This document shows positions 7,990-64,000 of a stretch of DNA of 64,000 nt, in pieces. Both the position numbers and the translations under genes were made by a program. The first letter of the stretch is position 1. Each line of letters opens with the position of its first letter. The stretch is from Amia ocellicauda. Its lineage: Eukaryota. The stretch lies in the NCBI RefSeq assembly GCF_036373705.1, contig NC_089855.1, positions 18,149,962 through 18,213,961 of the forward strand, in the 5' to 3' direction. A model generated the notes under the pieces. That model saw nothing but the letters and a program-made list of their open reading frames with translations, had not been told where the DNA came from and searched no databases.

Positions 7990-8395
7990 GGAATCAAAAA
8001 ATAACTTGACCATGCCAAAAGAGTTGAAAAGTTTTGAGTGAGGAAAATAAGGGTTCAAATCTAGCTTTACTGGCAGAGGGATACAGTGAGCATCGGGTTG
8101 CTTCCATCCTTAAAATTTCAAAGACGGCAGTTCATAAGAATAAGGTCAAGCAGGAGACAATGTGGACAACAAAGCTACAGACCGGCAGAGGGCAAAAACG
8201 ACTCTCCACTGACCGGGATGACCGCCAACTCATTTGAATGTCACTCAACAACCACAGGATGACATCAAGTGACCTACAAAAAGAATAGCAAACAGCAACT
8301 GGGGTGAAGTGCACGGTGAGGACGATTCAAAACAGGCTCCTAGGGGCAGGGCTAAAGTCGTGCAAAGCTAGAAAAAAGCTTTTAAAATATTTTTA
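7990..8395 (+). mobile_element. Tc1/mariner transposase N-terminal (HTH) fragment, a solo remnant.
   Basis: ORF 8034..8237 translates to LAEGYSEHRVASILKISKTAVHKNKVKQETMWTTKLQTGRGQKRLSTDRDDRQLI, followed by ...SSDLQKE..TATGVKCTVRTIQNRLLGAGLKSCKARKK. This is the characteristic paired-like DNA-binding region of Tc1 transposases. Confidence 0.65.
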
Positions 8396-12029: not shown

Positions 12030-13440
12030 CAGTGGCTATGGGAAGTATTCACCACCCTTGGACTTCACATGTTGTTCATGGGTTCTGATGTACAAAACTT
12101 ATTCCACACTTTTAATGTGGGGGAAAAATTGGGGGGGGGGTGAAAAAACAAATCAATTTTAAAACAAATCTGAGAGGTCTTCATTAGAGAAGTATTCACT
12201 CCCTTTGTTATGAGATTCCTAAATAAACTCAGGTGCAACCTATTGCCTTCAGAATTCACACAATAAGCTTAAAGGAGTCCATCTGTGTACAATAAAAGTG
12301 GTTCACATGATTTCAGATTAAATACACAGGTCTCTGTCACGTCACACATTTGGATAGTATTATCTTTGCTTTGAATGCACTATGAAGATCAAGAGGCTTT
12401 CAAAACAGCTCCAGGTTAAAGTTGTGGAAAGGTACAGGTCAGAGAAGAGATATAAAAAGATTAGTGAATATCCTTTGGAGCACAGTCAAGTTGATCATTA
12501 AGTGGAAAGTATACAGCACCACCCAGAATCTGTTTAGAGCAGGCTGTCCTCCCAACCTGAGCAGCCTGGTAAGAAGGACATTGGTCAGAGAAGCCACCAA
12601 GAGGCCACTGACAACTCTGAAAAACCTACAGCATTCCATGGTTGAGATGGAAGTTGTCAACAATAGCACAGGTACTCTATAGATCTGGCCTTTATGTAAG
12701 AGTGGTAAGAAGGAAACCGTTTCTGAAAAATCCGATGTAAAATCTTGCTATGAATTTGCAAAAAGACATTGGAATAATTTGGCCTAACTGCAAAGCATTA
12801 TGTCTGGTGCAAACCCAACACAGCACCTCCCCCAGATGACACCATCCCTACTGTGAAGCATGGTAGTGGCAGCATCATCATGCTATAGTAATGTTTGCAT
12901 TGGCAGGGTCTGGGAAGCCTGGTAGGGTAGATGGCAAAATGAATGGAGCTATATACAGTCAAAGCCTTGAGGAAAACCTGCAAACGACCCAAGACTGTGA
13001 TGGAGATTCACCTTTCAGCAGGACAATGACTCCATGCAGACAGCCAAGGCAACACTGGAGTGGCTTAAAAACAATAAAGTGAGTGTCCTGGAGTGGCCCA
13101 GTCAAAGCCCAGACTTTAATCTGATTGACAATCTGTTGGAAAACTTGGAAGTTTGCGGTCTACCAATGATCCCCTTGACAGAACTTGAAAAAAGTTGACA
13201 AGAAGAATGGGCGAATGATGCACAATCCAGATGTGCAAACCTGGTAGAGACTCACAGCTGTAACTGTTGTCAAAGGTGGTTCTACCAAGTATTGACTCAG
13301 GCAGGTGAATACTTATCTAACCAAGACCAGAATAATATAAAATGGTAAATGCTGTTAGAATAAATACTCCACCATGTTTTGAACATAGAAAATAACTGAG
13401 GAATTAATATCAATTTTCAAGGTGAATTACAGTGGTAAAC
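12030..13440 (+). mobile_element. Sleeping-Beauty-like Tc1 transposon carrying a pseudogene. The 3' end is degenerate.
   Basis: The 5' TIR is TACAGTGGCTATGGGAAGTATTCACCACC at 12028. ORF 12422..12682 translates to VERYRSEKRYKKISEYPLEHSQVD/...KWKVYSTTQNLFRAGCPPNLSSLVRRTLVREATKRPLTTLKNLQ (the SB N-terminus). Downstream fragments read [12 protein letters not shown].., FQQDNDSMQTAKATLEWLKNNKVSVLEWPSQSPDFNLI and the C-terminal VVKGGSTKY*. A GGTGAATACTT TIR core follows at about 13311. Confidence 0.75.
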
Positions 13441-21107: not shown

Positions 21108-21293
21108 TCAGTATCTACGACGTTTGTTAGGTCCGTCAAAGTTGCCCCCCTGGTTCCCTCTACCAAAACCACCAGGTCCACCCCCACCAGCAACGGCACC
21201 AACCATCGGTGCCTGTTGAGCTTCAACACCAGGTCTGCCAACCATCGGGGAGCCCATTTGTGGAGGACCACCTTGCGGGAATCTATCATTGCG
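21108..21293 (-). CDS. PSPC1: PSPC1 terminal coding exon. It encodes [61 protein letters not shown]. The 3'UTR continues below 21108.
   Basis: The acceptor is ctatag|cgc. The frame differs from the listed ORF 21077..21289. It ends with the DBHS-family C-terminal NLS ...GPNKRRRY, then TGA (plus 21108-21110 = tca). Candidate poly(A) signals on the minus strand (tttatt on plus) are near 20064, 20341 and 20128. Confidence 0.85.
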
Positions 21294-47644: not shown

Positions 47645-48581
47645 GTGGTTACCTAAGTAATGGACCAAGGTTTTTCCAATGGTTTGGAGCCCAAGCTCGG
47701 TGCAGAAGAAAGCAACACGGCAGCAGAGGAGGAGTCTGCCATGGACACGGGAGTCCCAGAAGTTGAGACGGTTGCAGCGGTCCAGGACACCACGTCAGCC
47801 CCTGACGATCTCCAGCACACCTCGAAGGTGGCAGAGGAAGATGACGATGACGTAGTGTTCATAGAGCCACTTCCTTCAGCACAAGAGGAGAGCACGCCGA
47901 CCCTGGTTCCCAGCACTGGCACCGCTGCCGAAGCCCCCGTTTCCCAGACTCCAGACCGTGCCGAGGAGACTGCTACAGTGCCTCAGCACTCGCAGGATTA
48001 CACGCCTCCTCCGCCTCCCATGACTTTGGCCAACAGTCACGGCGAGACCATCGTTATAGATGATGAGGAAGATGCTGAGCTGACGTCTTTGCAGCAGCCC
48101 ACCTCATCCTCTGTCACTGGAACCAGGGCTGGTCAGGAGTCCAATGCTGCTGCGAGTTCTGCTGAGGCTACAGAGGCGATGGAGAGCCAGGTGGTGGCAG
48201 CTGTGCAGACTCCACTGAGCAGCACGGAGCCAGACTCTGAAATCCAGATCGCCAGCGTGACAACGCTTGACCTGGGGGCTAGCCTTGGCAGTGGTGGCCA
48301 GGGAGCCTCTGTACCTGGTGCCCGGGTCGATGGGGACATGAATCTGATGATAACCAGTGTCACCTCTCTGCACAACAGCAGCCTGGCGGAGGTAGGCAAT
48401 GGGTTGCAGATAAGCAACACCTTCAGCCTCAACCCAGATGCACAGAGTGCTCCCACAGCCTCACACACTGACTCCAGCAGGCCTGTGGGCCATTCCAGCA
48501 CGGGGACTTTCAATCCAGGAAGAGTCGGCACAGCCAGGGAGGCTGCTCAGAATGGGGAAACGGGGACCCACCAGAGACCTG
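47645..48581 (+). CDS. ZMYM2: ZMYM2 first coding exon. The ATG is at 47660. It encodes MDQGFSNGLEPK...DDDDVVFIEP...ETIVIDDEED...TEPDSEIQIASVTTLD...DMNLMITSVTSL...GTFNPGRVG...THQRP(D).
   Basis: ORF 47660..48607 supports it. The acceptor is ttttctcag|g. The donor is cct g|gtaatt. Several blocks match the human ZMYM2 (ZNF198) N-terminal region: DDDDVVFIEP, ETIVIDDEED, TEPDSEIQIA.VTTL and DMNLMIT.VTSL. Confidence 0.88.
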
Positions 48582-49216
48582 GTAATTCACCACTCTACAT
48601 TTTTTAATTGGTCATGAGCGCCTGCTTGTATTGAGTCACCTTGGGTCCTTGAGGAGAATTAGCCCTTGATCTCCTGCTCTATAGCCCTGCAGCATGGCAC
48701 AGCCTGCTGAGTAGGTGCTACAGCCTTAACTGGTTAAATGGGATCTTGCCTTTGTGGGTATCCTGTTGCCAAACAAGGAAATTTGTTTTACCTACAATGG
48801 GAAAATAGAGAGGTTTTGTTTCTTCCTCGAACTTGAACATGTATCCATAAATCTGTGTTATACAGATGTTTATTTATTACATTGTCAATGAAAGATTTAT
48901 AATTCCCAGTGATCAGTGATCTGCTTAACCCATCTATGCATTGAATACAAAAAGATTAGTTAATAACTTTTTTCCAAACTGTATTGCTTCACCTGCAGAC
49001 TTGCTTCTGTGCTTTTAAACCAGCTTCCAAATCCCATTTAAAAAAAAAAAAAAAAAGTGTGCCAAAGGTTTTATCACTAGCATACTGAAGAATATTATTG
49101 AATATAAGGAGCTGAACAATTGAAGTCTGCAGTCTTGATTTAATTTGTGTACATCCCAGTAAAGGCTCTTTGCTTTATTAGAGGTCTTTGTAATGTGAAC
49201 TTCTATTTATTAACAG

Positions 49217-49502
49217 ATTCGTGGATATCCCAGTCAGCCTCTTTCCCCCGAAATCAAAAGCAGCCAGGTGTTGATTCTCCATCTTCTGCGGCTTCCTTGC
49301 CAAAATCTGTCTTTCCGCCTCCAGCCTCTCAGCAGCCCTCTAAGCCGGTCAAAGTCACCTGTGCGAACTGTAAAAAGCCGCTGAGGAAAGGGCAGACGGC
49401 ATACCAGCGCAAAGGCTCGGCCCATCTCTTCTGCTCGACCACCTGCCTGTCAGCCTTCTCCCACAAGCCTGCCCCCAAGAAGAACTGCACAATGTGCACA
49501 AA
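49217..49502 (+). CDS. ZMYM2: ZMYM2 exon. It encodes (D)[20 protein letters not shown]...[53 protein letters not shown](K), which is MYM zinc finger 1.
   Basis: ORF 49147..49506 supports it. The acceptor is ttaacag|at. The donor is aca aa|gtaagg. It is near-identical to human ZMYM2. Confidence 0.92.
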
Positions 49503-49960
49503 GTAAGGTTCAGAGCGAATGCCAACTAGTCAGTCACAGAATAGTATGTCTTGTGTGTGCAGGCAAAGGGGAGGGAAGGTAAGTTGTGTTTGGGGGAACT
49601 TGCACTACTGGCAAAGGTTTTAATATTAAAATGATTATTACTGATTATCTTAATCTATTACTGTGAATTTAGAAAATCTATTTTTGTCGCATTACTAACT
49701 GGGTCTTTGTAGATATTTTCAAATTTAATGAACTTCAAAAAAATCTCTTTCCCTTAATCACAGCAGGGCAGCAACCATAAGCTTGAATAAATTATTATAT
49801 ATGGGAGCTTATTCTTTGCAAACTTTGTAGAATCTTCAAATTGTAATTTTGAGTCACAGCAAGGAATGATCTGTAATCTGTTCACAGTAGTGCAATCAAT
49901 AATTTAGCAAGGACTACCTAGTAAGTATAGAATCCAAATTACAAAAGATGCTCCTATACG

Positions 49961-50855
49961 TACACTGATCAGGCATAACATTATGACCCCTGACAGGTGA
50001 AATGAATAACACTGGTACTCTCATTATCATGGCACCTGTCAGTGGGTCGGATCTATTAGGCAGCAAAGTTGTCCTCAAAGTTGATGTGTTAGAAGCAGGA
50101 AAAATGGGCAAGCTTAAGGATCTGAGCGACTTTGACAAGGGCCAAATTGTGATGGCTAGACGACTGGGTCAGAGCATCTCCAAAACTGCAGCTCTTGTGG
50201 GGTGTTCCCAGTCTGCAGTGGTCAGTACCTATCAAAAGTGGTCCAAGGAAGGAAAAGCGGTGAACCACCGACAGGATCATGGGCAGCCAAGGCTCATTGA
50301 TGCACGTGGGGAGCGAAGGCTGGCCCGTGTGGTCCGATCCAACAGACGAGCTACTGTAGCTCAAATTGCTGAAAAAGTGAATGCTGGTTCTGATAGAAAG
50401 GTGTCAGAACACACAGTGCATCGCAGTTTGTTGCGTATGGGGCTGCGTAGCCGCAGACCAGTCAGGGTGCCCATGCTGACCCCTGTCCACTGCTGAAAGC
50501 GCCTACAATGGGCACGTGAGCATCAGAACTGGACCACGGAGCAATGGAAGAAGGTGGCCTGGTCTGATGAATGACGAGTTCAAGGTGTTGACTTGGCCTC
50601 CAAATTCCCCAGATCTCAATCCAGTCGAACATATGTGGGATGTGCTGGACAAACAAGTTCGATCCATGGAGGCCCCACCTCGCAACTTACAGGACTTAAA
50701 GGATCTGCTGCGAACGTCTTGGTGCCGGATACCACAGCACACCTTCAGAGGTCTAGTGGAGTCCATGCCTCAACGGGTCAGGGCTGTTTAGGCGGCAAAA
50801 GGGGGACCGACACAATATTAGGCAGGTGGTCATAATGTTATGGCTGATCGGTGTA
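49961..50855 (+). mobile_element. Internally deleted Tc1 element (non-autonomous derivative, copy 1) in a ZMYM2 intron.
   Basis: The TIRs are TACACTGATCAGGCATAACATTATGACC and GGTCATAATGTTATGGCTGATCGGTGTA. It sits at a TA target site. ORFs 50002..50496 and 50516..50791 encode the transposase N-terminus ([34 protein letters not shown]...RVPMLTPVH) and C-terminus (VLTWPPNSPDLNPVEHMWDVLDKQVRSMEAPPRNLQDLKDLL..SWCRIPQHTFRGLVESMPQRVRAV). They are joined at ...KKVAWSDE|RVQGVDL-VLTWPP, so the DDE catalytic core is missing. Confidence 0.85.
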
Positions 50856-51536
50856 TATTAATGTAAAATAAATTACTTTTAAAGTCTGAAAACTTTTCTG
50901 ATATTATTTTAAGTGGAAGCTGTAGACCTCTTGTGGTTATGCCATGTTACTGCAAATGCACATTGTTCACACCCATTCAAAATGTATGAAAAGGTCAGAG
51001 TCCACACTCTTATCTAGGTTGACCATGATGCCCTGTAACCATCTCACTGAAAAAATAATCTTTATGATGGTACTGAAGTTGGAGACATTTAAGTGTTCCT
51101 TTTGCACAGTATCCAAGCTTGGGTTCCTGAAGTGAATTCGTATATAGATTTGTTTAATTTGAAATTGCAAGGAAAATCAAACGAAACAAATTTGTGTACA
51201 AGTTGAATCCAGCATTGAAATTGTGCACTTCAGATTAGTGCTGTTGTACAGTTTTTTTTTTTTTTTTCTGGTAGGTAACTGTAGAGAGAGATTTACCAAC
51301 TGAGTAAACGATTTGACCAGTCTTCTGAACAACCAAGAATCTGAGAAATATTTTCATATGATAGTGTAGTATACAAATATTAGGTATTAAACCATCCTCT
51401 AATGACTTCAGTAAAGTAAAATGCATAGTGATTTTATCAAGGTTTACTTTTTCGCATTTGTTCAGAGAGCTTTTGCATGCTGAAATGTGTATGCAAATTT
51501 CCTGATTATATATATTTTTTTTCTTCTTCATTTTAG

Positions 51537-51699
51537 GGACATTACTACCATGAAAGGAACCATTGTTGCTCAAGTGGACTCCAGCGAGTCCTTCCAGGAG
51601 TTCTGCAGCACTGCTTGTCTGTCCTCATATGAAAATAAACAGAATCCTCCCAAAACCCCCATCAAGACCAGGTGCACGGTCTGTGGGAAACTAACTGAG
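51537..51699 (+). CDS. ZMYM2: ZMYM2 exon. It encodes (K)DITTMKGTIVAQVDSSESFQEFCSTACLSSYENKQNPPKTPIKTRCTVCGKLTE.
   Basis: ORF 51487..51711 supports it. The acceptor is cattttag|g. The donor is gag|gtaaaa. It matches the human ZMYM2 MYM finger. Confidence 0.92.
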
Positions 51700-51976
51700 G
51701 TAAAATCCTGAAGAGAAAACATTACTAAATTACCTTTGTAATGTTTTAATATGGAAGGTATTATACTCATTTTCCTCATAGTGATAGACCCACTAGAAGC
51801 CATGCATTTGCTATTGTAAATTAAATCTGATGATAATTATAGATAATCTAATGTTTTTAATCAATTATATACTATATGATATAATACACTGGATGTGTAG
51901 TTTTCAGTGTTAATGATATAAGTTCTATACAGTTTCTTTAAAATTAGCTTTCTGAGACCTGAACATTACATGTTTG

Positions 51977-51998
51977 TTTTTTTTTTTTTTTTTTTTTT
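51977..51998 (+). repeat. Poly(T)22 tract in a ZMYM2 intron. Similar T or A homopolymers of 16-19 nt lie at 51252-51267, 52472-52490, 54673-54691 and 49040-49056.
   Basis: Direct reading. Confidence 0.9.
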
Positions 51999-52048
51999 CC
52001 CTGGATCAGGTTTGAGTGAAGTCATTGTATCTGTTTCTTTAATTGCAG

Positions 52049-52261
52049 ATTCGCCATGAGGTTAGCTTTAAAAACGTCACCCATAAGATATGCAGTGATC
52101 ACTGCTTTAACCGGTATAGAATGGCCAATGGTCTCATTATGAACTGTTGTGAACAGTGTGGAGATTATTTGCCTAATAAATCGTCTGCAAATCATTTCCT
52201 TATAATTGATGGACAGCAGAAACGGTTCTGCTGCCAGAACTGTGTTAAGGAATACAAGCAG
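52049..52261 (+). CDS. ZMYM2: ZMYM2 exon. It encodes [71 protein letters not shown].
   Basis: ORF 52043..52297 supports it. The acceptor is attgcag|att. The donor is aag cag|gtaaga. Confidence 0.92.
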
Positions 52262-53009
52262 GTAAGAATGGGTTTTAAACTAGGACATTTTATTTAAAAC
52301 ACAAAAATGTTTTATACTACAGTTCACCAAGTAGGAGAAATATGCTATGACTCTTCATATACCATGAAGGTACGATGCTTATTAATGTGGAATCCAATGC
52401 CTTCTACAGTGCAAACTGCAGATCAGAGTTCTACTAGCTGGCAATTGTATAGCCAGTGCAAGTGTTTGTTTAAAAAAAAAAAAAAAAAAATGTATTCAGG
52501 TTCAGTGGAAGAAGTGTGATTAGATTTATATTATATATGTTTTGCTATATTTCTGCCTTGTACAATGCCATGCTTTCCACTTTCCATTTCCACTTATTCC
52601 TGTACTGTGTCATCTACACTGGGCAACCCCCAGGTGATGCATTGTACTATGATTTGCTCTGGAGTGCCATTCTTGCTAGGCCACTGTCTATGGCTGCTTG
52701 CATATATATATGCAGAAGGAAAGTCATTAATTATCTTAAGCAGCATGAATTAAATTGATTATCCTTGTTTGAGGACGCCATCATACTTGCATGGTTATAA
52801 TTTATCAAATGAAGGCTACCACAATTGAGCTAAGCAAACCCTGAACATGAGAAACCCAAATTCAGAATTGAAATCAAAACGGAAATTGAAATCTCGAAAG
52901 AGACAATGTACAAAAAGTCAGTCCTTGTAGAAAACTGCAGTTAGAAGAAATTGTTACAATTTTTTTTGCATTCTAAATTAAATTGACATTTTCCTATGTA
53001 CAATTTTAG

Positions 53010-53166
53010 ACTCATGGCAAAATAACATGCTGTACAGGATGCAGAACTCCATGTAGATTTTTCGACATTACTCATTGCATAGGACCCAGTGGTAATATGG
53101 AGCCCTACTGCTCTACTGCGTGCATGAACTCGCACAAGTCCAAGAACTCCAGTCCTGCAAGTTCTG
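53010..53166 (+). CDS. ZMYM2: ZMYM2 exon. It encodes THGKITCCTGCRTPCRFFDITHCIGPSGNMEPYCSTACMNSHKSKNSSPASS(G).
   Basis: The acceptor is caattttag|act. The donor is tct g|gtaagt. It matches human KHGKVTVCTGCRTRCRYFDMTQCIGPNGYMEPYCSTACMNSHK. It is shorter than the ORF-track cutoff in its own frame. Confidence 0.88.
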
Positions 53167-53985
53167 GTAAGTCCATGTTTCCTTTGAGATATTCAAACTA
53201 AGCCATGTTATTTACGCTTTGAATAAATTTTCATAGTTTTTCACACCATGAGCAGATCTGCAATGAGACCAGACAATCATTTTTGGCTTGTTGGGTTATC
53301 GATTGAATTGCTCTGTTGATTTTTGGTATAGATAGTCCCCTTAACATAGTTTAAATGAGAGAAATTAATGAACTGTCAAGTGAAGTGTTGTAAGGATAGG
53401 ACTACCTGCTGAGATGTAACTGCATTTGGAAAGTGTCTCTTGTAATCTCTGGTTCTTTTTTGTCCACACTTATTATGTTAGGACACCTATTAGGATTATG
53501 TTTACCTTTATTATAGAGATGGTTAGTCTTTGTTTTTTTGTATTAACAATGCATCATTATTTAATGCATGCATTCTATTATTTGTATGACGTTACAACTG
53601 GGGATTTAGATGCAACTGTTCCAGTTTCCTTTCTTCAATCGGTTGTTGGATAGCTAGCGACCCGATAAATTGCAAATGCTGACCTAATTCTTTATTCTTG
53701 GTTTACAGCTTTGTAGAGCTCTACAGTCAGTTGAGCTTGGTTATAGGAGCCCCTTGGCACAGAAAGCTTTCACACTTGAAAACAAATAGTAAGCATTTTG
53801 CATAACATCTACCGGAAGTCCCTTTCCCTGTCATAGTTGAACCTATAATGTTTTGAGAGATTTAATAGGAAGATCTACACTTTGTGTGACATCTCTAAAT
53901 TACCCATTGAAGTATTCAGAAGGCCCTTCTGGTTTCGTTTAAAATGTTGATGCATCATTTTTGTGATTTTTATCTTGCTCTTTAG

Positions 53986-54101
53986 GTGCAGCACCTGCAT
54001 GCCATTTTTGTAAAAGAAGTGCATTACCTCAGTATCAAGCCACACTGCCTGATGGGAAGCTTTATAACTTCTGTAGTTCTAACTGTGTGACAAAATTTCA
54101 G
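53986..54101 (+). CDS. ZMYM2: ZMYM2 exon. It encodes (G)AAPACHFCKRSALPQYQATLPDGKLYNFCSSNCVTKFQ.
   Basis: The acceptor is ctctttag|gt. The donor is ttt cag|gtaatc. It matches human IICHFCKRNSLPQYQATMPDGKLYNFCNSSCVAKFQ. Confidence 0.88.
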
Positions 54102-54775
54102 GTAATCTCCCTCTGTTGTGCTCTGGTTATACTCCTTTTATGATTTAATTGTGAATGCATTAGATTATACCCCCACCCCCTGTTAAATAACTAAATTGAA
54201 AATCCTTGTATGTATTAACTCAAAACATTAGGTCTATGATACAGGATTCATTTGACCCTAAGCACAAGTCCTAATGACTGTTCATCTCGCAGAACTCAGA
54301 GCTTTGTAAAAGTAGTCCCGTCCTATGTATTAACGTTGTGAATATTTGTAAATAACTTGGTTTTTAAGACCGACTAGTACTTACTTTTGCATCCACACAT
54401 TTTCCTTTAGCATCTTGTTCTCGTTGCTCTCCTCATCACTGTGTATGACATCTGCAGAGCTCCTCTGCCAGCACTGGCAACCATGAACATTTGGTTCACA
54501 AAGTATTGAGATTTGATATCAAAATAAAATTTACAAGACTAATGTTTGAGGTTTGGTACTAGGACGTCTTCAAAGTCATGACGACTGTCCCTGAGGTTTA
54601 AGCATATTGCAGATTTTAGTTTTTTAATTTGGTTATTGTTTTTAATTATTCTAATTCTAATCCCCTCAGAACTTTTTTTTTTTTTTTTTTTACCTTGTTC
54701 TAAAGTGTTGTATTTTCACAAGTCACAGTGAACTCTGAGTATATTTTACTGAATTCTGATGTCTCTGTTTCACAG

Positions 54776-54895
54776 ACTTTAAGTGTTCAGTCCTCAACAA
54801 ATGGGCAGACTGCACATTCCTTGAATAATATCCAGCTGAAATGCAATTATTGTAGAGGAGCTTTCAGTTTAAAGCCAGAGACGCTGGAGTGGGAG
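54776..54895 (+). CDS. ZMYM2: ZMYM2 exon. It encodes TLSVQSSTNGQTAHSLNNIQLKCNYCRGAFSLKPETLEWE.
   Basis: ORF 54728..54964 supports it. The acceptor is gtttcacag|act. The donor is tgg gag|gtaagt. Confidence 0.88.
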
Positions 54896-55123
54896 GTAAG
54901 TTTTAATTTTTTCAGTAAAGGGGACAATCTTGACTTCCTTACGTTTATGGATAATTCAAATTGAATTTGTGTATCAGATGGTTGTTAACACCATTCTAAT
55001 TGTAGTATAGTGTGCTATGATATGTGTATCAATTTATTTAAATCCTTCATTTGTACTGGCAAAACATATTGTTGAAGCTGCCATAAAATGGTGTTAATTT
55101 GAGCATCCTCTGATTTCCTACAG

Positions 55124-55274
55124 AATAAAGTCTACCAGTTTTGCAGCAAAACTTGCTGTGATGACTACAAAAAACTGCACTGTATTGTAACATACTGTGA
55201 ATACTGTCAAGAGGAGAAAACTCTTCATGACATGGTGAAATTCTCAGGAGTGAAAAGACCTTTCTGCAGTGAAG
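55124..55274 (+). CDS. ZMYM2: ZMYM2 exon. It encodes NKVYQFCSKTCCDDYKKLHCIVTYCEYCQEEKTLHDMVKFSGVKRPFCSE(G).
   Basis: The acceptor is tttcctacag|aat. The donor is gaa g|gtgagt. It is near-identical to human ZMYM2. Confidence 0.9.
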
Positions 55275-55796
55275 GTGAGTCAGGGACAGGCTGAGATTTT
55301 AAACTTCATTAGCAGTCTTTTATTTTCTGTAAGGAAGCATTTTGTATTTGAAGGATGCTTCTGTCATGGGGAAAGTTCCTCAAGTGGTTTTAACTGCCTT
55401 TATAATATGTAGTGTATTTAATTAGTTTGCAATAAAATATGATTGAACCATTTATTTTGTAGGGTGAGAACTGGCCAAGTACAGTTAACTCTATAGTAGT
55501 TCATGTAGGAATTATTGGCTAATGAATTGGTTGGTGATCAAGATGTTATTTTAAATCAATGTACAATTTTCTAAGCAGTAGATTTTAAAGTAGTAATAAC
55601 ATTTGCTGTCTAAGGACCTATAACTTGTTTTTTCTGAAGTTTTTATTTTAGTATGAAGTATTGTATTCTACCACTAGATGGAGTCCCTTTACCAAACTGT
55701 AAAATACTAAATTGCAGAGCGATTTCCTAAAAATTGCAAAAGCAGATGAAGTTGACCAGAAAAAGTTCATTAAAATGTACGATTTTGTCCTTTCAG

Positions 55797-55969
55797 GCTG
55801 TAAGCTGCTGTTTAAACAGGACTTTGCAAGACGATTAGGTCTGAAATGTGTAACCTGCAGCTACTGTTCCCAAATGTGTAAAAGAGGAGCCACTAAAGAG
55901 ATCGATGGGATTATGCGAGACTTCTGCAGTGAAGCCTGTTCCAAGAAGTTTACAGACTGGTATTACAAG
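55797..55969 (+). CDS. ZMYM2: ZMYM2 exon. It encodes (G)CKLLFKQDFARRLGLKCVTCSYCSQMCKRGATKEIDGIMRDFCSEACSKKFTDWYYK.
   Basis: ORF 55712..56083 supports it. The acceptor is cctttcag|gc. The donor is aag|gtcaga, which is a weak donor. Confidence 0.88.
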
Positions 55970-56230
55970 GTCAGAACATCTGTGTATTCTGTGTATAAAT
56001 TCCACACTTGTGTATGCATTTCATTTGATGAGGTATTAAGATTAAAATGCACAGCCAGTCTGCTCAAGATTTTGAGGGGCTGAGGAAGCTGTACTGATTT
56101 GTGTAATCTGAACCTAGGGTGAAGAGGAATAGATTCTACATAGATTTGCAATGGATAAGTCCTTTAAACCCCTAAGTGATTTGTCATATTGAGTTCAGAA
56201 TGGTAACATGGCCACTGTTCTCCATTCCAG

Positions 56231-56396
56231 GCTGCGCGCTGTGACTGCTGTAAAGTGCAGGGCAATCTTACGGAGTCTGTACAGTGGAGGGCGGAGATGA
56301 AACATTTCTGCGACCAGCACTGTTTGCTGCGCTTTTACTGTCAGCAGAACGAGCCCAACATGTCCACCCAGAAAGGCCCTGAAAATATGTCCTTCG
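56231..56396 (+). CDS. ZMYM2: ZMYM2 exon. It encodes AARCDCCKVQGNLTESVQWRAEMKHFCDQHCLLRFYCQQNEPNMSTQKGPENMSF(G).
   Basis: The acceptor is ccattccag|gct. The donor is ttc g|gtacga. It matches human AARCDCCKSQGTLKERVQWRGEMKHFCDQHCLLRFYCQQNEPNMTTQKGPEN. Confidence 0.88.
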
Positions 56397-56750
56397 GTAC
56401 GATCTCAATTTAGACCGTTTTATAAAACCAATTGAAAGATGTTAATCGATACACACTGGTTCTTCACGCCCCCCCCTCCCCTCGGAAAAGAAATAGCTGT
56501 TGTCCAAAGCGTTCAGTAACCATAGAAAATATCCTAATTTACAATACAGAAGAGCAGGAGTTTTGTTGCAAATCCTTGTTTGTTTAAATTAATAAAACAT
56601 TGTTAGAAACTCACTGTACCTTAATCTTAAGTAAATTGTAAACTTATAGTAGATAATTTGTGGCATATCTTTTAGCTGAGTACTTCCCTTTGAGATGTGG
56701 GGATATTATCTTATGGTTATAGCTGATTTGTTTTGTTTTGCTTTTTATAG

Positions 56751-56779
56751 GGCAAGGAACGCAAACAACGAAAAGCACC
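56751..56779 (+). CDS. ZMYM2: ZMYM2 29-nt micro-exon. It encodes (G)QGTQTTKST.
   Basis: It is required to keep the frame between the flanking exons. The acceptor is ctttttatag|gg. The donor is agc acc|gtaagt. It corresponds to the human QGCQTSRTKMTG segment. Confidence 0.7.
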
Positions 56780-56896
56780 GTAAGTGCGTTTTTAAGATCA
56801 AATCACGTTCTACTATATATATTCATTGTAAGGTTTGAGCTCTTGGTACGAAGTAAGGATTTTCATATGCATTTGTTCTCTTAAAAATACTTTTAG

Positions 56897-57041
56897 GGAT
56901 CAAATCAGACTTCATCAGTTTCATCTTACTCCAATTGTGGGATAAAGGATGTGAAGAACAAGGCTGTGCTGTGTAAACCTCTAACAATGACGAAAGCCAC
57001 ATATTGTAAGCCGCACATGCAGACGAAGTCCTGTCAGACAG
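56897..57041 (+). CDS. ZMYM2: ZMYM2 exon. It encodes GSNQTSSVSSYSNCGIKDVKNKAVLCKPLTMTKATYCKPHMQTKSCQT(D).
   Basis: The acceptor is cttttag|gga. The donor is aca g|gtaaac. It matches human NKEMKNKAVLCKPLTMTKATYCKPHMQTKSCQTD. Confidence 0.88.
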
Positions 57042-57134
57042 GTAAACTACGGCAGAGTCGCTGACAAGTGTTTTTTAAACTTAGTTAGGTTTGCAGTGAT
57101 TTGAATGTGCAGTTGATTTTTGTCTGTCTTCCAG

Positions 57135-57250
57135 ATGAAGTAGTGAAGACTGAGTATGTTCCAGTCCCCATCCCTGTGCCTGTGTATATCCCAGTGCCCA
57201 TGAACATGTACAGCCAGATTACCCCTGCTCCAGTGACGCTACCCGTTCCG
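57135..57250 (+). CDS. ZMYM2: ZMYM2 exon. It encodes (D)EVVKTEYVPVPIPVPVYIPVPMNMYSQITPAPVTLPVP.
   Basis: ORF 57101..57373 supports it. The acceptor is gtcttccag|at. The donor is ccg|gtagga. It matches human TEYVPVPIPVPVYIPVPMHMYSQ. Confidence 0.88.
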
Positions 57251-57698
57251 GTAGGAACCCTCTTCCCCCGTTATCATGTGACAGTTCATTTTATTTATTA
57301 CACAAATGTTTTAGTTTTATGGTTGGGTTTCTGGTGTGTTGTGATCCAATGGCTCACCTCACCAGTAGGATGATGGATAGCAAATGAGTTAATTCTGTGA
57401 AAGAAATGTGAATGTTTTATGTAAAATAAATGATGTTGCACTTAAACTTGGGTGTAATGTTTCATTTTGAACTTCAACCGTACACATTAAAGCCTGCTTC
57501 ATGTCTGGGGATTTTGCAGGTAGATTACAATTCAGCTTTTCCAAATCAAGCCTCTCCACGTAAACCCACTTTCTCCCCCCAGTCCTCTGCTAGACTTAAA
57601 TGCTGGGTCAAAGACTCTGACATGCATATCATTGCTTGCAGCCCACATGGTTTACCCTTATTAAAGGAGGTGTTTACAGCAATGCTTGTCATCCGCAG

Positions 57699-57861
57699 GT
57701 TCCAGTGCCAGTTTTTTTGCCCACTACACTGGATAGTGCAGAGAAGATTGTGCAGGCCATTGATGAGCTCAAGGCCAAGATTCCCACAGATCCGCTGGAG
57801 GCTGACCTTTTGACCATGGCTGAAATGATAGCCGAGGCAGATGAGAAGCCAGACAGTACAG
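57699..57861 (+). CDS. ZMYM2: ZMYM2 exon. It encodes VPVPVFLPTTLDSAEKIVQAIDELKAKIPTDPLEADLLTMAEMIAEADEKPDST(D).
   Basis: ORF 57636..58094 supports it. The acceptor is catccgcag|gtt. The donor is aca g|gtatgc. It matches human VPVFLPAPLDSSEKIPAAIEELKSK...LLTMTDMMSED. Confidence 0.85.
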
Positions 57862-59251
57862 GTATGCCTTGCCTACAGACAGGACTGGTGTCTGCTTTGC
57901 TAACAGTTGCGCACCAGCAATTTTACTGTACCTCCTTGTCAATTCCGGTTATAACCACATTTGCGATTTCAATAGTAATTTGGTGTTTGTGGTCAGCCCT
58001 CAGGCAGACCTCGGAGCGCCTTCTCTGCATAGCCCAAATGAGTGACTGTTATATAAACATGGAAATTGTGACACACAATCCAAATAAGTTTTAATTTTGA
58101 CTTTTGAGATGTATTTTTCAAATCCCATGTTGAGATCTGTGTTTTTTGTTTTTTGTTTTTTGTTTTAGCTGGAGACTCCAGGCTGCCTGTATGGTTCAAT
58201 AACATAAATAGAAATTATACACACACACCCCTGCTTCTCCAAGATAAAACCGCATCGGATTGCATCAGTCGATCTGAACTGATTTTGTGTAAACTGTACA
58301 TTACTGTTAGGAACTACCATATAAGTTAATATTGATGCATGACGCATTTTCACAAACCTTCGTAGCTTTTCACCTTTTTCAGAGGAGAAATGTTTGCAGA
58401 TAACTGCAGAAAATAAAATTTCAGTGTTCAGTGATCATGGATGCTTTCTGCAAATGCTTAATTCAACACTGGCTAACCTTGATTATATGCTGCTATGGTT
58501 GATCCAGACATTTGTATCGGATTTAAAAAATGCTAACTAGTATAACACAAAACCGAATAACTAGTGCATAGGGCTGTGCAATATGATGTATATCGTGTGA
58601 CGATAGAAAAATGTCTATCGTTTCATATTATTTTTCGTCATTTGGACAACACTTTGCATTCTTCCCGGTTCTTCCTTACATGCCGGATTGCAGGCAAGAA
58701 ATGTGCATTCAGAAACGCAAACAAACATGGAGGAGAGTGAACTTGACACAGAATAACCAAAAGATACTTTAATTCACAAGCGCACACGTTCCGCCTCACT
58801 CTCATTGCCAAGCTAAACTCGATCTGCAATCACCCCCGACAATACGCAATCACACCCCCCACCCCCACTAATTTAGATGTATATAATTAGTATGAAATTA
58901 AAGAACAATAAAGTTTGGTTGCATTTGAATACATTGGAAAGCAATGCAAACAGATACAGAAAGTTTCATTTTCTTTTTATTAAGATGTTGAATAACAGTT
59001 TTTATTATTATTATAACTATTTTGTATTAACACGTGCTGTACTGGTAAGCAGAATTGAAATGCGACAGTCAGAGAAGAAATGTACTTGTCTAGCAGGTGT
59101 TAAATGCGCCACTATAAACCCAGCTGTGGTAAATCTACCTGAATCTATACTATTTTACAGCGCATGTGTTGTGTGATTACCATTACTTGTTGTTGTTATC
59201 TGACCGTAAATCATACTGTGTGTGTATGTATGTATGTGTGTGTATATAATA

Positions 59252-60142
59252 TATATACCGATCAGCCATAACATTATGACCACTGACAGGTAAGTGAATA
59301 ACACTAATACTCTCATTATCATGGCACATGTCAGTGGGTGGGATCTATTTAGGCAGCAAGTGAACATTTTGTCCTCAAAGTTGATGTGTTAGAAGCAGGA
59401 GAAATGGGCAAGCGTAAGGATCTGAGCGACTTTGACAAGGGCCAAATTGTGATGGGTAGATGACTGGGTCAGAGCATCTCCAAAACTGCAGCTCTTGTGG
59501 GGTGTTCCTGGTTTGCAGTGGTCAGTACCTATCAAAAGTGGTCCAAGGAAGGAAAAGCGGTGAACCGCCGACAGGGTCATGGGCGGCCAAGGCTCATTGA
59601 TGCACGTGGGCTGGCCTGTGTGGTCCAATCCAACAGACGAGCTACTGCTCAAATTGCTGAAAAAGTGAATGCTGGTTCTGATAGAAAGGTGTCAGAACAC
59701 ACAGTGCATCGCAGTTTGTTGCGTATGGGGCTGCGTAGCCGCAGACCAGTCAGGGTGCCCATGCTGACCCCTGTCCACTGCTGAAAGCGCCTACAATGGG
59801 CACGTGAGCATCAGAATTGGACCACGGAGCAATGGAAGAAGGTGGCCTGGTCTGATGAATCACGAGTTCAAGGTATTGACTTGGCCTCCAAATTCCCCAG
59901 ATCTCAATCCAGTCGAGCATCTGTGGGATGTGCTGGACAAACAAGTCCGATCCATGGAGGCCTCACCTCGCAACTTACAGGACTTAAAGGATCTGCTGCT
60001 AACGTCTTGGTGCCAGATACCACAGCACACCTTCAGAGGTCTAGTGGAGTCCATGCCTCAACGGGTTAGGGCTGTTTAGGCAGCAAAAGGGGACCTACAC
60101 AATATTAGGCAGGTGGTCATAATGTTATGGCTGATCGGTGTA
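59252..60142 (+). mobile_element. Second copy of the same internally deleted Tc1 derivative (copy 2). It shares the deletion junction and carries an extra small deletion.
   Basis: The TIRs are TATACCGATCAGCCATAACATTATGACC and ...GGTCATAATGTTATGGCTGATCGGTGTA. ORFs 59497..59784 and 59804..60079 are about 95% identical to copy 1. They share the same junction WSDESRVQGIDL..VLTWPPNSPDLNPVEH. There is an additional in-frame loss at DARG|LACVVQ relative to copy 1 ([14 protein letters not shown]). Confidence 0.85.
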
Positions 60143-60144
60143 TA

Positions 60145-61362
60145 TACACTCACCTAACGGATTATTAGGAACACCTGTTCAATTTCTCATTAATGCAATT
60201 ATCTAATCAACCAATCACATGGCAGTTGCTTCAATGCATTTAAGGGTGTGGTCCTGGTCAAGACAATCTCCTGAACTCCAAACTGAATGTCTGAATGGGA
60301 AAGAAAGGTGATTTAAGCAATTTTGAGCGTGGCATGGTTGTTGGTGCCAGACGGGCCGGTCTGAGTATTTCACAATCTGCTCAGTTACTGGGATTTTCAC
60401 GGACAACCATTTCTAGGGTTTACAAAGAATGGTGTGAAAAGGGAAAAACATCCAGTATGCGGCAGTCCTGTGGGCGAAAATGCCTTGTTGATGCTAGAGG
60501 TCAGAGGAGAATGGGCCGACTGATTCAAGCTGATAGAAGAGCAACTTTGACTGCTCGTTACAACCGAGGTATGCAGCAAAGCATTTGTGAAGCCACAACA
60601 CATACAACCTTGAGGCGGATGGGCTACAACAGCAGAGGATCCCACCGGGTACCACTCATCTCCACTACAAATAGGAAAAAGAGGCTACAATTTGCACAAG
60701 CTCACCAAAATTGTACAGTTGAAGACTGGAAAAATGTTGCCTGGTCTGATGAGTCTCGATTTCTGTTGAGACATTCAGATGGTAGTCAGAATTTGGCGTA
60801 AACAGAATGAGAACATGGATCCATCATGCCTTGTTACCACTGTGCAGGCTGGTGGTGGTGGTGTAATGGTGTGGGGGATGTTTTCTTGGCACACTTTAGG
60901 CCCCTTAGTGCCAATTGGGCATCGTTTAAATGCCACGGCCTACCTGAGCATTGTTTCTGACCATGTCCATCCCTTTATGACCACCATGTACCCATCCTCT
61001 GATGGCTACTTCCAGCAGGATAATGCACCATGTCACAAAGGTCCAATCATTTCAAATTGGTTTCTTGAACATGACAATGAGTTCACTGTACTAAACTGGC
61101 CCCCACAGTCACCAGATCTCAACCCAATAGAGCATCTTTGGGATGTGGTGGAACGGGGGCTTCGTGCCCTGGATGTTCATCCCACAAATCTCCATCAACT
61201 GCAAGATGCTATCCTATCAATATGGGCCAACATTTCTAAAGAATGCTTTCAGCACCTTGTTGAATCAATGCTACGTAGAATTAAGGCAGTTCTGAAGGCG
61301 AAAGGGGGTCAAACACAGTATTAGTATGGTGTTCCTAATAATCCTTTAGGTGAGTGTGTGTA
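60145..61362 (+). mobile_element. Near-intact Tc1 transposon of a distinct subfamily. Its transposase gene is complete except for one frameshift.
   Basis: The TIRs are TACACTCACCTAACGGATTATTAGGAACAC at 60145 and GTGTTCCTAATAATCCTTTAGGTGAGTGTGTA at 61329-61362. ORF 60295..60801 encodes MGKKGDLSNFERGMVVGARRAGLSISQSAQLLGFSRTTISRVYKEWCEKGKTSS...WSDESRFLLRHSDG. ORF 60779..61324 encodes RIWRKQNENMDPSCLVTTVQAGGGGVMVWGMFSWHTLGPL...FQQDNAPCHKG...WPPQSPDLNPIEHLWDVVER...KAKGGQTQY*. The two ORFs differ by -1 frame at about 60783 (GGTAG-TCAGA). Confidence 0.85.
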
Positions 61363-62518
61363 TATATATACACAATGTACACACCTAGGGATGAAACGGT
61401 TACCGGTTTCACGATAAACCACGGTGAAATTCCCAACGGTTAGTATTACAGTTTCAAATTTTAATTATTAAAACTGTGTTTGAAAAACGCATGGTAAATA
61501 CTGACCCGCATCAACCAAAGTTAGCAACAGTCTGATGCAGGCGCAGCATGCAACAACGTGGGTTTTGTTTTTTGTGAAAACATGGTGGAAGGCAGTGACA
61601 GCGCTCTGGAGCTTCCTTTGTTTTTCTAATGCAGTTATGCCAAACCACGCCCCGTTTCTGCTAGGTGTTCTAGACTCACAGGTCTGTGTCATTGGTCAAC
61701 AGCCTGAAAGCGCTGATTGGACAGACTGAGAGACTCAGCAGTCAGAGACTGGTGTTTTATGCGAGTGCAATGTCTCGGTGTTGCGGGTTCTATTACTCAT
61801 ATTTAATGATTAATGAAATACTTGTAGTTTGAATGTCTTTGGTCTTGTTTTGTAGCTTGATTGGATAAAAACAAGAAATATCGAGATATTATTTTTAGTC
61901 GTATTGCTCAGCCCTACTAGGGCAACACAATACAAATGAATATGCACATAATTATACAAAATAATGCACAGAATAAAAGTAACATGTGCCAAAGTAGGGT
62001 AGTCCACAGTTTGTGACGTGTAATCCAAATCAATGAAAAGCAAATTCCCTTTTTTAATTGCAGATTTCTCAAATGATGTAATGTTATCAAGTTTGGACTA
62101 TTAAAACATAACTTTATACATGAAGACAGTTACTTGTAGCATTTATAATTCAGGTGTATTGGATCTCGGGTGCTTCTGGATCGTTTTGATTTGGCCACAG
62201 ATGGTGCAGAATTGCAGCCTTTCTGAAGCCACTAATACAGTCCAGATTGTCTTCTGTATGTTGCAATGTGCTCATTAACCATCTCACACCCAGGTGCTTG
62301 TGACAATATTTACTTTCACAATGATGATCAGCATATTTTGCAAATATGTTATGATATGCCACAGTTTATTTATTGAAATAAAATATTTTCAAATACTTAG
62401 AACCTATCCTTCATCTTTCACCCCTGTCTTACTACATGTAAATACTGGATTATCAAGTAGGGGACCATTTATTTAATGGAATATACAACTTTTTCCCTTT
62501 TTTCCCTTTCCTTTGAAG

Positions 62519-62626
62519 ATGTGAAAATTGAAAGCCAGAAGAGTGAAGGGGCCAGTTCAGATGAGAAAGAAGAGCCAGATGATTCTTATGAGCCTGAACT
62601 GGATTTGGAAAATGATTTCCCTAGAG
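62519..62626 (+). CDS. ZMYM2: ZMYM2 exon. It encodes (D)VKIESQKSEGASSDEKEEPDDSYEPELDLENDFPR(V).
   Basis: The acceptor is cctttgaag|at after a long polypyrimidine tract. The donor is aga g|gtgtgt. It matches human ...YEPDLDIEIDFPR. Confidence 0.8.
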
Positions 62627-63061
62627 GTGTGTTTCTTGAATGAATGAATGAATTGTCACACAATAGCCAGCCCTTTAGTACGAAACACTTTTGTACATAA
62701 TGGTCTTCATTGGATCTTTTCTTGCTTGAAAGTCATAAGACTAACGGAATAGACTGCTAAATGTATTCAGAATAAACTATATAATTATAAATCATACAAG
62801 GTCTCTTGTCAAATGTTAATATGAGAACAAAAAACACACAATCCAGATTTTATGTAGATGCAGCTTTTCACATGGTTTGGGGACATCAAAGCATTGTAAA
62901 CCATCTGCAGCATCTAGTTCCCCCCCCCTCATAGTGTTTAGCAAATGCACATCCCTGGAACTGTATTCAACTCTGGTTCCACAACCAAGACTCTGTTCAT
63001 TTGATCAACGTCCATTTGTCCCAATGCCAGACTTGTCACAGTCTTCCCATCTTCTTAACAG

Positions 63062-63168
63062 TTCCCGATCCGGTTGTAGAAGAACTTGATAGTGAAATAG
63101 CGTTCATGTTGCCTCCTGTTTTGGGAGAAGAAAATGAAGAGAAGCCTCGACCTCAAGTTAAAAAGAAG
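63062..63168 (+). CDS. ZMYM2: ZMYM2 exon. It encodes (V)PDPVVEELDSEIAFMLPPVLGEENEEKPRPQVKKK.
   Basis: ORF 62877..63089 overlaps it. The acceptor is cttaacag|tt. The donor is aag aag|gtatga. It matches human AAEELDMENEFLLPPVFGEEYEEQPRPRSKKK. Confidence 0.8.
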
Positions 63169-63464
63169 GTATGACTTTGGAAGTGTACTCTGGGAAACGG
63201 ACAAGCTTATGAAGTGTGGAGTGGAAATGGAAAATGATATCCACCAACACTAGTGCAGTTAATATTTCCAGAGTAATGGAAGGTATCTAAAATGCTTTTG
63301 TGGTGGTCTCCATTTTATATGGGCTTCTAGTATTAATCTTTTATAAAATATGAGCTTTTATAATACAGATCTGAAAGTATACTTTGTGATTGCAGTCTGT
63401 AGCAAGTGAAGACTTGAAAGGGCCTACCTAAACGCAGTTACTTTTTGTTCTGTTTTGTAAATAG

Positions 63465-63645
63465 GGATACAAGAGAAGAGCAGCTGAAGATAATTCCCAT
63501 GTAATTTGGCCTGAAACTCCAGACAGTTTGTTTGCCTTAAAATCTACTTATGGCATTAATGCTTGGAAGCGATGGGTGTCAACTACAGCTACAGCTGTAA
63601 CAGAAGGCACAGAGGATAACCAAGAACAGGAACAACCAAAACAAA
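63465..63645 (+). CDS. ZMYM2: ZMYM2 exon. It encodes GYKRRAAEDNSHVIWPETPDSLFALKSTYGINAWKRWVSTTATAVTEGTEDNQEQEQPKQ(T).
   Basis: The acceptor is ttgtaaatag|gga. The donor is caa a|gtgagt. It matches human GAKRKAVSG...FKYTYGVNAWKHWV. Confidence 0.8.
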
Positions 63646-63779
63646 GTGAGTGGTGTGTCTAGAAACTGATCAAGATGGACAATGGCCAAGACTGACGCTT
63701 CCTAAAGAGATTGTTTTGTAGGATTTTTAGTAGGATCTTGACTGGACTTTTCTTTATTGAATTATAATTTTTATTGCAG

Positions 63780-63931
63780 CAAAACCAGTGAGATTAAAAA
63801 GAAACCTCCTGTCACATTCTGCTGCTGAACTCAACTACGGACTCTCGCGCTTTGTCAGTGAGGTTCGAAGGCCAAACGGGGAGAGCTATGCACCTGATAG
63901 CGTCTTTTATCTCTGCCTTGGCATCCAGCAG
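63780..63931 (+). CDS. ZMYM2: ZMYM2 exon. It encodes (T)KPVRLKRNLLSHSAAELNYGLSRFVSEVRRPNGESYAPDSVFYLCLGIQQ. The gene continues beyond the window.
   Basis: The acceptor is ttattgcag|ca. The donor is cag cag|gttagt. It is near-identical to human LLSHTTAELNYGLAHFVNEIRRPNGENYAPDSIYYLCLGIQE. Confidence 0.85.
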
Positions 63932-64000
63932 GTTAGTAAGTCAAGAGTAAGCTTTACTTAAACATCTTGAGCACACTTGAACATTTTGCTACTTAGCCAA

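Follow-up and report, generated by a model that had tools for sequence, protein, structure and literature searches.

Two intronic copies of an internally deleted DD36E/Incomer-type element with one deletion junction in a ZMYM2-like gene of Amia ocellicauda

Ds of Ac and the internally deleted P elements are the classical examples of non-autonomous deletion derivatives. For DD36E/Incomer, a family of Tc1/mariner, horizontal transfers are known, among fish. DD36E/Incomer elements are 1.2 kb in length, with TIRs of 22-32 bp and a TA duplication (Sang et al. 2019, Mob DNA 10:45, PMC6875036), and occur widely among ray-finned fish, where most copies are truncated (PMC6875036). In vespertilionid bats, IC-MITE2 (810 bp) and IC-MITE1 are derived from Incomer (PMC6875036, Table 2). 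Miniaturisation of Tc1/mariner elements via microhomology has been described for Ozma and the MITEs Gnome, Elf and Goblin in Aedes aegypti (Yang et al. 2013, PMC3814204).

We analysed a 64-kb stretch of A. ocellicauda DNA (hereafter the window, meaning the whole of this stretch), in which two copies of an internally deleted element lie in cis, 9.3 kb from each other and with the same orientation (Table 1). Both copies are on the + strand, in two different introns of a ZMYM2-like gene and oriented like it. A first-pass annotation of this DNA had given their intronic location and their orientation relative to the gene, both correct, and had placed them correctly, with the TA duplications included within their ends. 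The homologue search with the host gene led to ZMYM2 proteins with PF06467, and the best match of the first coding exon was to Acipenser sinensis (45%), with tetrapods at 35-40% and trout at 31%. A TA is present on either side of both copies, which was the check proposed for target-site duplications. The TIRs are 28 bp in both copies, perfect at the 3′ end and with 3 mismatches (copy 1) or 1 mismatch (copy 2) at the 5′ end; in copy 2 the first base is altered (CA to TA). In a MAFFT alignment the mean identity between the two copies was 96%, in agreement with the ~95% claimed before, and the likeness ended precisely at the TIR ends. Private deletions were evident in the alignment for each copy: 7 bp and 1 bp, close to the 5′ end, for copy 1, and 9 bp, 3 bp and 1 bp for copy 2, the 9-bp one being the DARG/LACVV deletion already annotated, which is real.

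Table 1. Positions in the window of the two deleted copies, their parts, the host gene and the adjoining element.
Feature	Position	Strand	Remarks
Copy 1, internally deleted DD36E/Incomer-type element	49963..50853	+	891 bp
TA target-site duplication, copy 1, 5′ side	49961..49962	+	read from sequence; TIR begins at 49963
TA target-site duplication, copy 1, 3′ side	50854..50855	+	read from sequence
5′ TIR, copy 1, 28 bp	49963..49990	+	3 mismatches vs consensus CACCGATCAGCCATAACATTATGACCAC
3′ TIR, copy 1, 28 bp	50826..50853	+	identical to consensus (comparison of ends)
Transposase DNA-binding remnant (paired-like HTH), copy 1	50105..50496	+	Pfam HTH_Tnp_Tc3_2, E=1.3e-18; closed by common TGA 50494-50496
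Deletion junction, copy 1	50575..50577	+	G 50576 common to both sides; L002 nt 652-972 gone
DDE C-terminal remnant (EFKVLTWPPNSPDLNPVE...), copy 1	50578..50791	+	Pfam DDE_3, E=1.5e-7; closed by common TAG 50789-50791
Copy 2, same deleted element as copy 1	59256..60140	+	885 bp
TA target-site duplication, copy 2, 5′ side	59254..59255	+	within (TG)n(TA)n microsatellite
TA target-site duplication, copy 2, 3′ side	60141..60142	+	read from sequence
Deletion junction, copy 2	59863..59865	+	G 59864; nucleotide position as in copy 1
40-mer with junction at centre			GGCCTGGTCTGATGAATCACGAGTTCAAGGTGTTGACTTGG
ZMYM2-like host gene exons	47660..63961	+	stop-to-stop ORF maps; homologue search
ZMYM2-like first coding exon	47660-~48590	+	
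ZMYM2-like MYM zinc-finger exons	within 49144-49503, 51484-51708, on to 57621-~57830	+	
Further ZMYM2-like exons	62461-62640, 63761-63958	+	
Element B, other DD36E/Incomer-type element	60145..61356	+	1,212 bp, near full length, frameshifted

A near-identical full-length form of the element exists. In fact, the ancestor reconstructed from the two copies (~900 bp) is 98% identical to a complete element of 1,220 bp with 28-bp TIRs, found in a public read assembly (L002), which is full length but frameshifted. The sequences of L002 and L003 were from SRR20075943 and SRR20075934, respectively, and that of a further locus, L001, from ERZ908079. Copy 1 is 94.9% identical to L002 over L002 nt 29-651 and 93.3% identical over nt 973-1271.

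Judged by sequence, the family is DD36E/Incomer of Tc1/mariner, and the generic Tc1 label given at first has to be replaced, the element not being a classic DD34E Tc1. Precisely, 36 residues separate the second D from the E in L002/P0001 and in element B (the second D is deleted in the copies themselves), and the nucleotide identity to the Amphilophus citrinellus Incomer TMIC01Ramci (PMC6875036 supplementary file 1) is 93% over 280-391 nt, the match of the window copies to this element halting exactly at the junction. The copies have the TA duplication, the TIRs and the paired-like HTH plus partial DDE domain of Tc1/mariner, and L002 has the size (~1.2 kb) and the short TIRs (22-32 bp) of DD36E/Incomer. 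Element B, which adjoins copy 2, is set apart from the deleted family by an identity of ~72% (BLASTN) and by its TIRs (CACTCACCTAACGGATTATTAGGAACACC), unlike those of the deleted family; it is 86.6% identical to one Incomer entry in the supplement of Sang et al. (PMC6875036). We rejected it as the source of transposase on the basis of these other TIRs, the ~72% identity and its frameshift. No full-length member of the subfamily of the deleted copies was found by BLASTN in the 64-kb window.

In the BLASTN comparison with L002, both copies lack 321 bp, corresponding to L002 nt 652-972, and the same 321 bp are absent relative to the full-length L003 and L004. The breakpoint falls on the identical base, a G, in both copies, so that the claim of a common breakpoint was borne out at the nucleotide level; the junction string quoted with it also matches the sequence. 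Microhomology at the junction is 1 nt against L002; in the parent, before decay, it was probably 3 nt (ACG). The loss amounts to ~107 codons and includes the second catalytic D (FQQDNAPCH). The 5′ part retains the whole DNA-binding domain through WSDES, hence the first catalytic D, and the 3′ part restarts at EFKVLTWPPNSPDLNPxE, with the catalytic E kept; the annotated loss of the DDE core thus applies to the second D, the first D and the E being still there. Overall, ~75% of the parent remains. Splicing was rejected as the origin of the 321-bp gap, given that no GT...AG placement is possible and that both TIRs are present. Other members of the family (P0189, P0054 and P0175) carry internal deletions elsewhere and, since breakpoints vary among family members, an identical one is informative.

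The coding capacity of both copies is broken. The DDE_3 match covers profile positions 105-145 of 146, because the middle of the domain is deleted, and the N-terminal and C-terminal halves are in different frames, the junction being out of frame. Premature stops are present in both copies, at the positions in Table 1 for copy 1 and at 59782-84 (TGA) and 60077-79 (TAG) for copy 2. The ORF fragments that remain measure 164+91 aa in copy 1, against 95+91 aa in copy 2. To say that the copies retain long ORFs, as in the first-pass annotation, was misleading, since the frames are interrupted by the two common stops and by the frame change at the junction.

We considered as derived any substitution that differed from three full-length outgroups. 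Eight derived substitutions are common to both copies, distributed along the full element (50018 to 50849), and two of these give the TGA at 50494 (C to T) and the TAG at 50790. Private substitutions are 19 vs 16, that is 2.1% and 1.8% from the reconstructed ancestor. Since the stops are among the common derived changes, the common ancestor was already non-coding. The identical junction, the eight derived sites, the unrelated flanks and the TA duplications, taken together, show that the deletion happened once and that an already dead element then inserted at at least two TA sites; the same internal structure is found at two independent insertion sites. With the second D deleted, the junction out of frame, two common stops and the TIRs kept, the element is non-autonomous and, being non-coding, it required transposase in trans. 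The order of events proposed at first, deletion and then mobilisation in trans, agrees with the junction, the derived sites, the unlike flanks and the TA duplications. We therefore assign a probability of about 0.8 to the reading in which both copies arose by insertion of a single non-autonomous DD36E/Incomer derivative with an internal deletion, the deletion having occurred once and trans mobilisation having followed.

In the history that we propose, a full-length element of ~1,220 bp lost 321 bp in the middle of its transposase gene in a single event. The lost segment lies between WSDES and EFKVLTWPP and takes in the second catalytic aspartate. The most likely route would be interrupted or abortive excision-gap repair, or microhomology-mediated joining; with a junction microhomology as short as 1-3 nt, the repair route is a putative one. 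The derivative kept both 28-bp TIRs, and next to them ~610 bp and ~280 bp of sequence, so that it was still recognisable, excisable and pasteable by the transposase of full-length relatives. Two ZMYM2 introns then received it, each at a TA site and 9.3 kb apart, and the two insertions could represent either one hop over a short distance or a burst of the whole family. We infer the trans mobilisation by a full-length element resident in this genome, as well as how far any amplification went. Since then, each copy has decayed by ~2%, and is now an inert intronic passenger.

Further copies were searched for in several ways. The 91-aa ORF that spans the junction, used as a protein query, returned just C-termini of the full-length type and other deletions, and exact look-ups gave no match for both window ORFs or for nine variants of them, ancestral or copy-specific. 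A scan of metagenome contigs for the pattern directly 5′ of the junction gave a single match, the full-length copy L004, and the junction and pre-junction patterns had no match among viral contigs or the contigs of prokaryote genomes. Likewise, the 321-bp-deletion derivative was not found in the PMC6875036 supplement or in the searched collections, in which there is little fish DNA and nearly none of this species, so that these negatives are weak. In L001, a marine metagenome contig with ~83% identity, the junction is 5 nt further in on each side; it looks like the same junction plus a secondary 10-bp loss, in an element that is ~17% diverged.

The first-pass interpretation of the two copies as the product of amplification was overstated, as it rests on two copies 9.3 kb apart, for which one local hop would suffice. 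Nor do we retain the description of a "MITE in the making": taking as a yardstick a MITE size typically well under ~800 bp and no coding sequence, copies of 885-891 bp, with 75% of the parent left and recognisable transposase ORF fragments, represent a deletion derivative and not a miniature element.

The copies lie within one gene, 9.3 kb apart and oriented alike, as could result from an artefact of the assembly or from duplication of the locus, whether segmental or tandem. We consider this barely conceivable, as the likeness ends at the TIRs, no homology better than E=0.28 was found between the 1.5-kb flanks of copy 1 and copy 2 (BLASTN), the repeat search of the whole 64-kb window gave no further long repeat, direct or otherwise, and the two copies differ in their indels and have separate TA duplications. 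A duplication including the flanks had been named at first as the finding that would contradict transposition; we looked for it, and the unrelated flanks exclude it. The nearly coincident junction of the ~83% identical L001 could instead point to a breakpoint hotspot, at which two full-length insertions would have undergone the same deletion independently. This seems very improbable in view of a breakpoint that is nucleotide-identical with just 1-3 nt of microhomology, of eight common derived substitutions, two of them stop codons, and of the different breakpoints of other family members. Two apparent cases of such a hotspot, at the 3′ breakpoint and both from Hemibagrus, were rejected: for P0026, the DNA of the locus (L005) is contiguous and its translation does not give P0026, which is hence a spliced gene model, and for P0002, which comes from the same annotation, a spliced gene model was assumed.

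For cut-and-paste elements, P elements among them, it is established that a close cis arrangement favours the use of ectopic templates. The two copies are close in cis and oriented alike, and just two are known, which would fit a templated gap repair (ectopic conversion), in which a full-length element was excised and the break was repaired from the deleted copy 9.3 kb away. Such a conversion would pass on the junction and the common substitutions without any transposition of the deleted element. However, it needs an extra full-length insertion and a tract spanning the element to both TIRs, and no mosaic was seen, the common derived sites running from one end of the element to the other; being also less parsimonious than one hop of a TIR-intact element, it is in our opinion improbable.

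One deletion followed by mobilisation in trans is ordinary transposon biology, and the element is a routine non-autonomous one. It matters little past annotation, in which the repeat is now assigned to DD36E/Incomer, and it is a clean small case for trans mobilisation from a common breakpoint and dead-on-arrival mutations. Both copies may be used as neutral intronic dating markers and as presence/absence characters in related species. We regard as unlikely the reading, drawn from the L001 junction, in which they belong to an old and successful non-autonomous Incomer lineage, with many copies and in more than one fish species, that persisted through or with the horizontal transfers of this family; were this true, a transposase-less derivative would have outlasted or accompanied those transfers.

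Compared with DD36E/Incomer as described, the locus agrees in the size and TIRs of L002, the TA duplications, the 36-residue spacing and the 93% identity to a curated member, and differs in that the window copies are a specific derivative with a 321-bp internal deletion. Like the bat IC-MITEs, they are a shortened Incomer with the TIRs and part of the ORF kept, moved in trans, and of similar length (~900 bp here, 810 bp in IC-MITE2). The bat elements, however, have 147-951 copies per genome, TIRs of 51-126 bp and a truncated ORF of 235 aa, whereas the present element is known from two copies, with short TIRs and an ORF interrupted by two stops and a frame change; if hundreds of junction-bearing copies were to exist genome-wide, this would be the fish counterpart of the bat IC-MITEs. 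As for the Ozma MITEs, the parent is a Tc1/mariner element, one junction is found across copies, and the same inference applies, that is deletion first and amplification after; those MITEs, however, are high-copy and miniature in the true sense, and their junctions show 6-8 bp of microhomology, in contrast to the 1-3 nt and the 75% of the parent kept here. Finally, as in Ds and the deleted P elements, the ends are kept, the transposase is damaged by a deletion that may have arisen in gap repair, and movement needs an autonomous partner, although Ds and P belong to the hAT and P superfamilies, with other target duplications and end structures.

By sequence reading and pairwise alignment we confirmed the two related elements of the first-pass annotation, here copy 1 and copy 2, whose ends as annotated there took in the flanking TA dinucleotides. 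They lie in two different introns of the ZMYM2-like gene; their intronic location and sense orientation had been claimed before. Their mean identity is 96%. Both copies have a 28-bp TIR (consensus CACCGATCAGCCATAACATTATGACCAC) at each end, with a TA immediately outside each TIR. Copy 2, whose first base is mutated (CA->TA), lies within a (TG)n(TA)n microsatellite. The similarity ends sharply at the element termini, the flanks (1.5 kb each side) gave no BLASTN match between the copies better than E=0.28, and a repeat search of the 64 kb found no further long repeat; hence, both an assembly duplicate and a segmental duplication including the flanks, the opposing case considered in the annotation, were ruled out as the source of the second copy.

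Positions of the two deleted copies and of other features in the window
Feature	Position	Strand	Remarks
Copy 1	49963-50853	+	
Copy 2	59256-60140	+	
Element B	60145-61356		1,212 bp; TIR CACTCACCTAACGGATTATTAGGAACACC
ZMYM2-like gene, first coding exon	47660-~48590	+	
ZMYM2-like gene, MYM zinc-finger exons	about 49.1 to 57.8 kb	+	
ZMYM2-like gene, further exons	62.5-63.9 kb	+	
Candidate PSPC1-like last exon (ORF), upstream of the ZMYM2-like gene	21111-21293	-	End of the ORF resembles the C-terminus of PSPC1/NONO-type proteins
Decayed Tc1-like transposase fragments	1609-1878, 2686-2907, 3826-4294, 8028-8234, 12386-13195	+	Motifs e.g. QQDNDPK, WPSQSPD(H/F)N

For comparison we used three full-length relatives from public data, namely L002 and L003 (Logan assemblies of the public read runs SRR20075943 and SRR20075934, respectively) and L004 (a metagenome contig). 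From CACC to GGTG, the element in L002 measures 1,220 bp. Both copies align by BLASTN to L002 nt 29-651 and 973-1271, while nt 652-972 (321 bp) are absent from both, and the breakpoint falls on the identical base (G at 50576 in copy 1, G at 59864 in copy 2), so the shared deletion breakpoint first noted was borne out. However the missing segment is placed, its ends are never GT...AG, which rules out splicing as the cause of the gap. The paired-like DNA-binding domain is encoded in full by the 5′ part of the copies (Pfam HTH_Tnp_Tc3_2, E=1.3e-18), which reaches WSDES and hence keeps the first catalytic D; the 3′ part restarts with EFKVLTWPPNSPDLNPxE (positions 105-145 of the 146 in the DDE_3 profile). 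About 107 codons are lost, including those for FQQDNAPCH with the second catalytic D.

With L002, L003 and L004 as outgroups, eight derived substitutions were found to be common to both copies, spanning 50018 to 50849 and including two stops (CGA->TGA at 50494 and TTG->TAG at 50790). These substitutions indicate that the common ancestor of the copies was an already dead, deleted element. Given the shared stops, and transposase halves in different reading frames, the long ORFs ascribed to the copies were overstated. Private substitutions number 19 (2.1%) and 16 (1.8%) in the two copies, each of which also has private indels. Breakpoints are not fixed in the family, since quite different internal deletions occur in other members (P0189 and P0054, as well as P0175/L006, a copy in Albula goreensis). 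In two catfish proteins (P0026 and P0002) the 3′ breakpoint seemingly coincides with the window junction; we rejected them as true deletions, both being best explained as spliced gene models, with DNA evidence for P0026 only. Precisely, in L005 (Hemibagrus guttatus JAUCMY010000030.1) the P0026 model is spliced across contiguous transposon DNA and so mimics an internal deletion in the protein, and P0002 looks the same. Incomer fragments account for many of the "hypothetical proteins" in the annotations of the Hemibagrus guttatus and Anabarilius grahami genomes.

The same junction, the shared substitutions and the unrelated flanks together support well the earlier claim that the deletion came first and mobilisation in trans followed. 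The data are most simply explained by a single deletion, which probably arose when the repair of an excision gap was interrupted or by microhomology-mediated joining, and by the later transposition, at least once, of the deleted element to a new TA site; transposase would be needed in trans for this step because the deleted element encodes none. The junction microhomology is 1 nt relative to L002. The parent probably read AACAACGAG on the 3′ side, where the CpG is TG in L002 and CA in L004; taking these as decayed, the microhomology would be 3 nt (ACG) in a parent with the CpG intact. Of the rival explanations, templated gap repair is the main one to survive: the deleted structure would have been copied into a neighbouring insertion that was once full length. 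This is the less parsimonious account, and no mosaic pattern in its favour was seen.

Two copies 9.3 kb apart could stem from one local hop or from a family of high copy number, and in either case the deleted element moved. In collections holding very little DNA of this animal, no further junction-bearing copy was found by protein search with the junction ORF, by exact look-ups of ORFs (reconstructed ancestral ones included) or by DNA pattern scans; "amplification" was therefore too strong a term, and "MITE in the making" was likewise overstated. A Tara marine metagenome contig (L001, ERZ908079) carries an element of the same family, ~83% identical, with an internal junction at positions ~620-650 (GGCCTGGTGTTGAA joined to AAGGTGTTGAC) that equals the window junction minus 10 nt (TCACGAGTTC). 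The diagnostic substitutions of the window copies are absent from it at checkable sites. It could be an old relative of the deleted derivative that later lost the 10 nt, or the likeness could be a coincidence, the product of an independent near-identical deletion.

Copy 2 directly abuts element B, a second and different DD36E/Incomer-type element placed head-to-tail against it, with TATA between, inside the microsatellite. Element B has a near-complete, frameshifted transposase, is 86.6% identical to an Incomer entry in the supplement of Sang et al. (PMC6875036), and has TG, not TA, as 3′ flank. Tc1/mariner debris abounds in this region; the decayed fragments in the table belong to other families, some being broken by (TA)n/(CA)n microsatellites. 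The minus-strand ORF we take to be of PSPC1/NONO type, and it would presumably match the PSPC1-ZMYM2 neighbourhood on human chromosome 13.

The reconstructed ancestor of the two copies is 98% identical to L002, 96.7% to the Albula goreensis fragment (L006) and 93% to a cichlid element, whereas the best protein match of the ZMYM2 first exon, in sturgeon, has only 45% identity, and that in trout 31%. The transposon is, hence, far more conserved across fish than its host gene, a pattern in keeping with the horizontal transfer that has been reported for Incomer.

The D-to-E spacing is 36 residues in the full-length relative and in element B; in classic Tc1 it is 34. The full-length relative is 1.22 kb long with 28-bp TIRs. 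Spacing, length and TIRs, as measured here, are the defining features of DD36E/Incomer (Sang et al. 2019; PMC6875036), to which we therefore assigned the copies. The available sequence of the Amphilophus citrinellus Incomer (supplementary table, PMC6875036) shares 93% identity with both L002 and the reconstructed ancestor; its match stops exactly at the junction in the window copies and continues into the deleted segment in L002. Fish Incomer copies are mostly truncated and bats have Incomer-derived MITEs of 810 bp in hundreds of copies (PMC6875036), while Ozma/Gnome in Aedes documents how a Tc1/mariner element was miniaturised by way of microhomology, all copies having one junction in common (PMC3814204). 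In the light of these cases, the two copies are a non-autonomous deletion derivative, of a well-known kind, of a described Tc1/mariner family.
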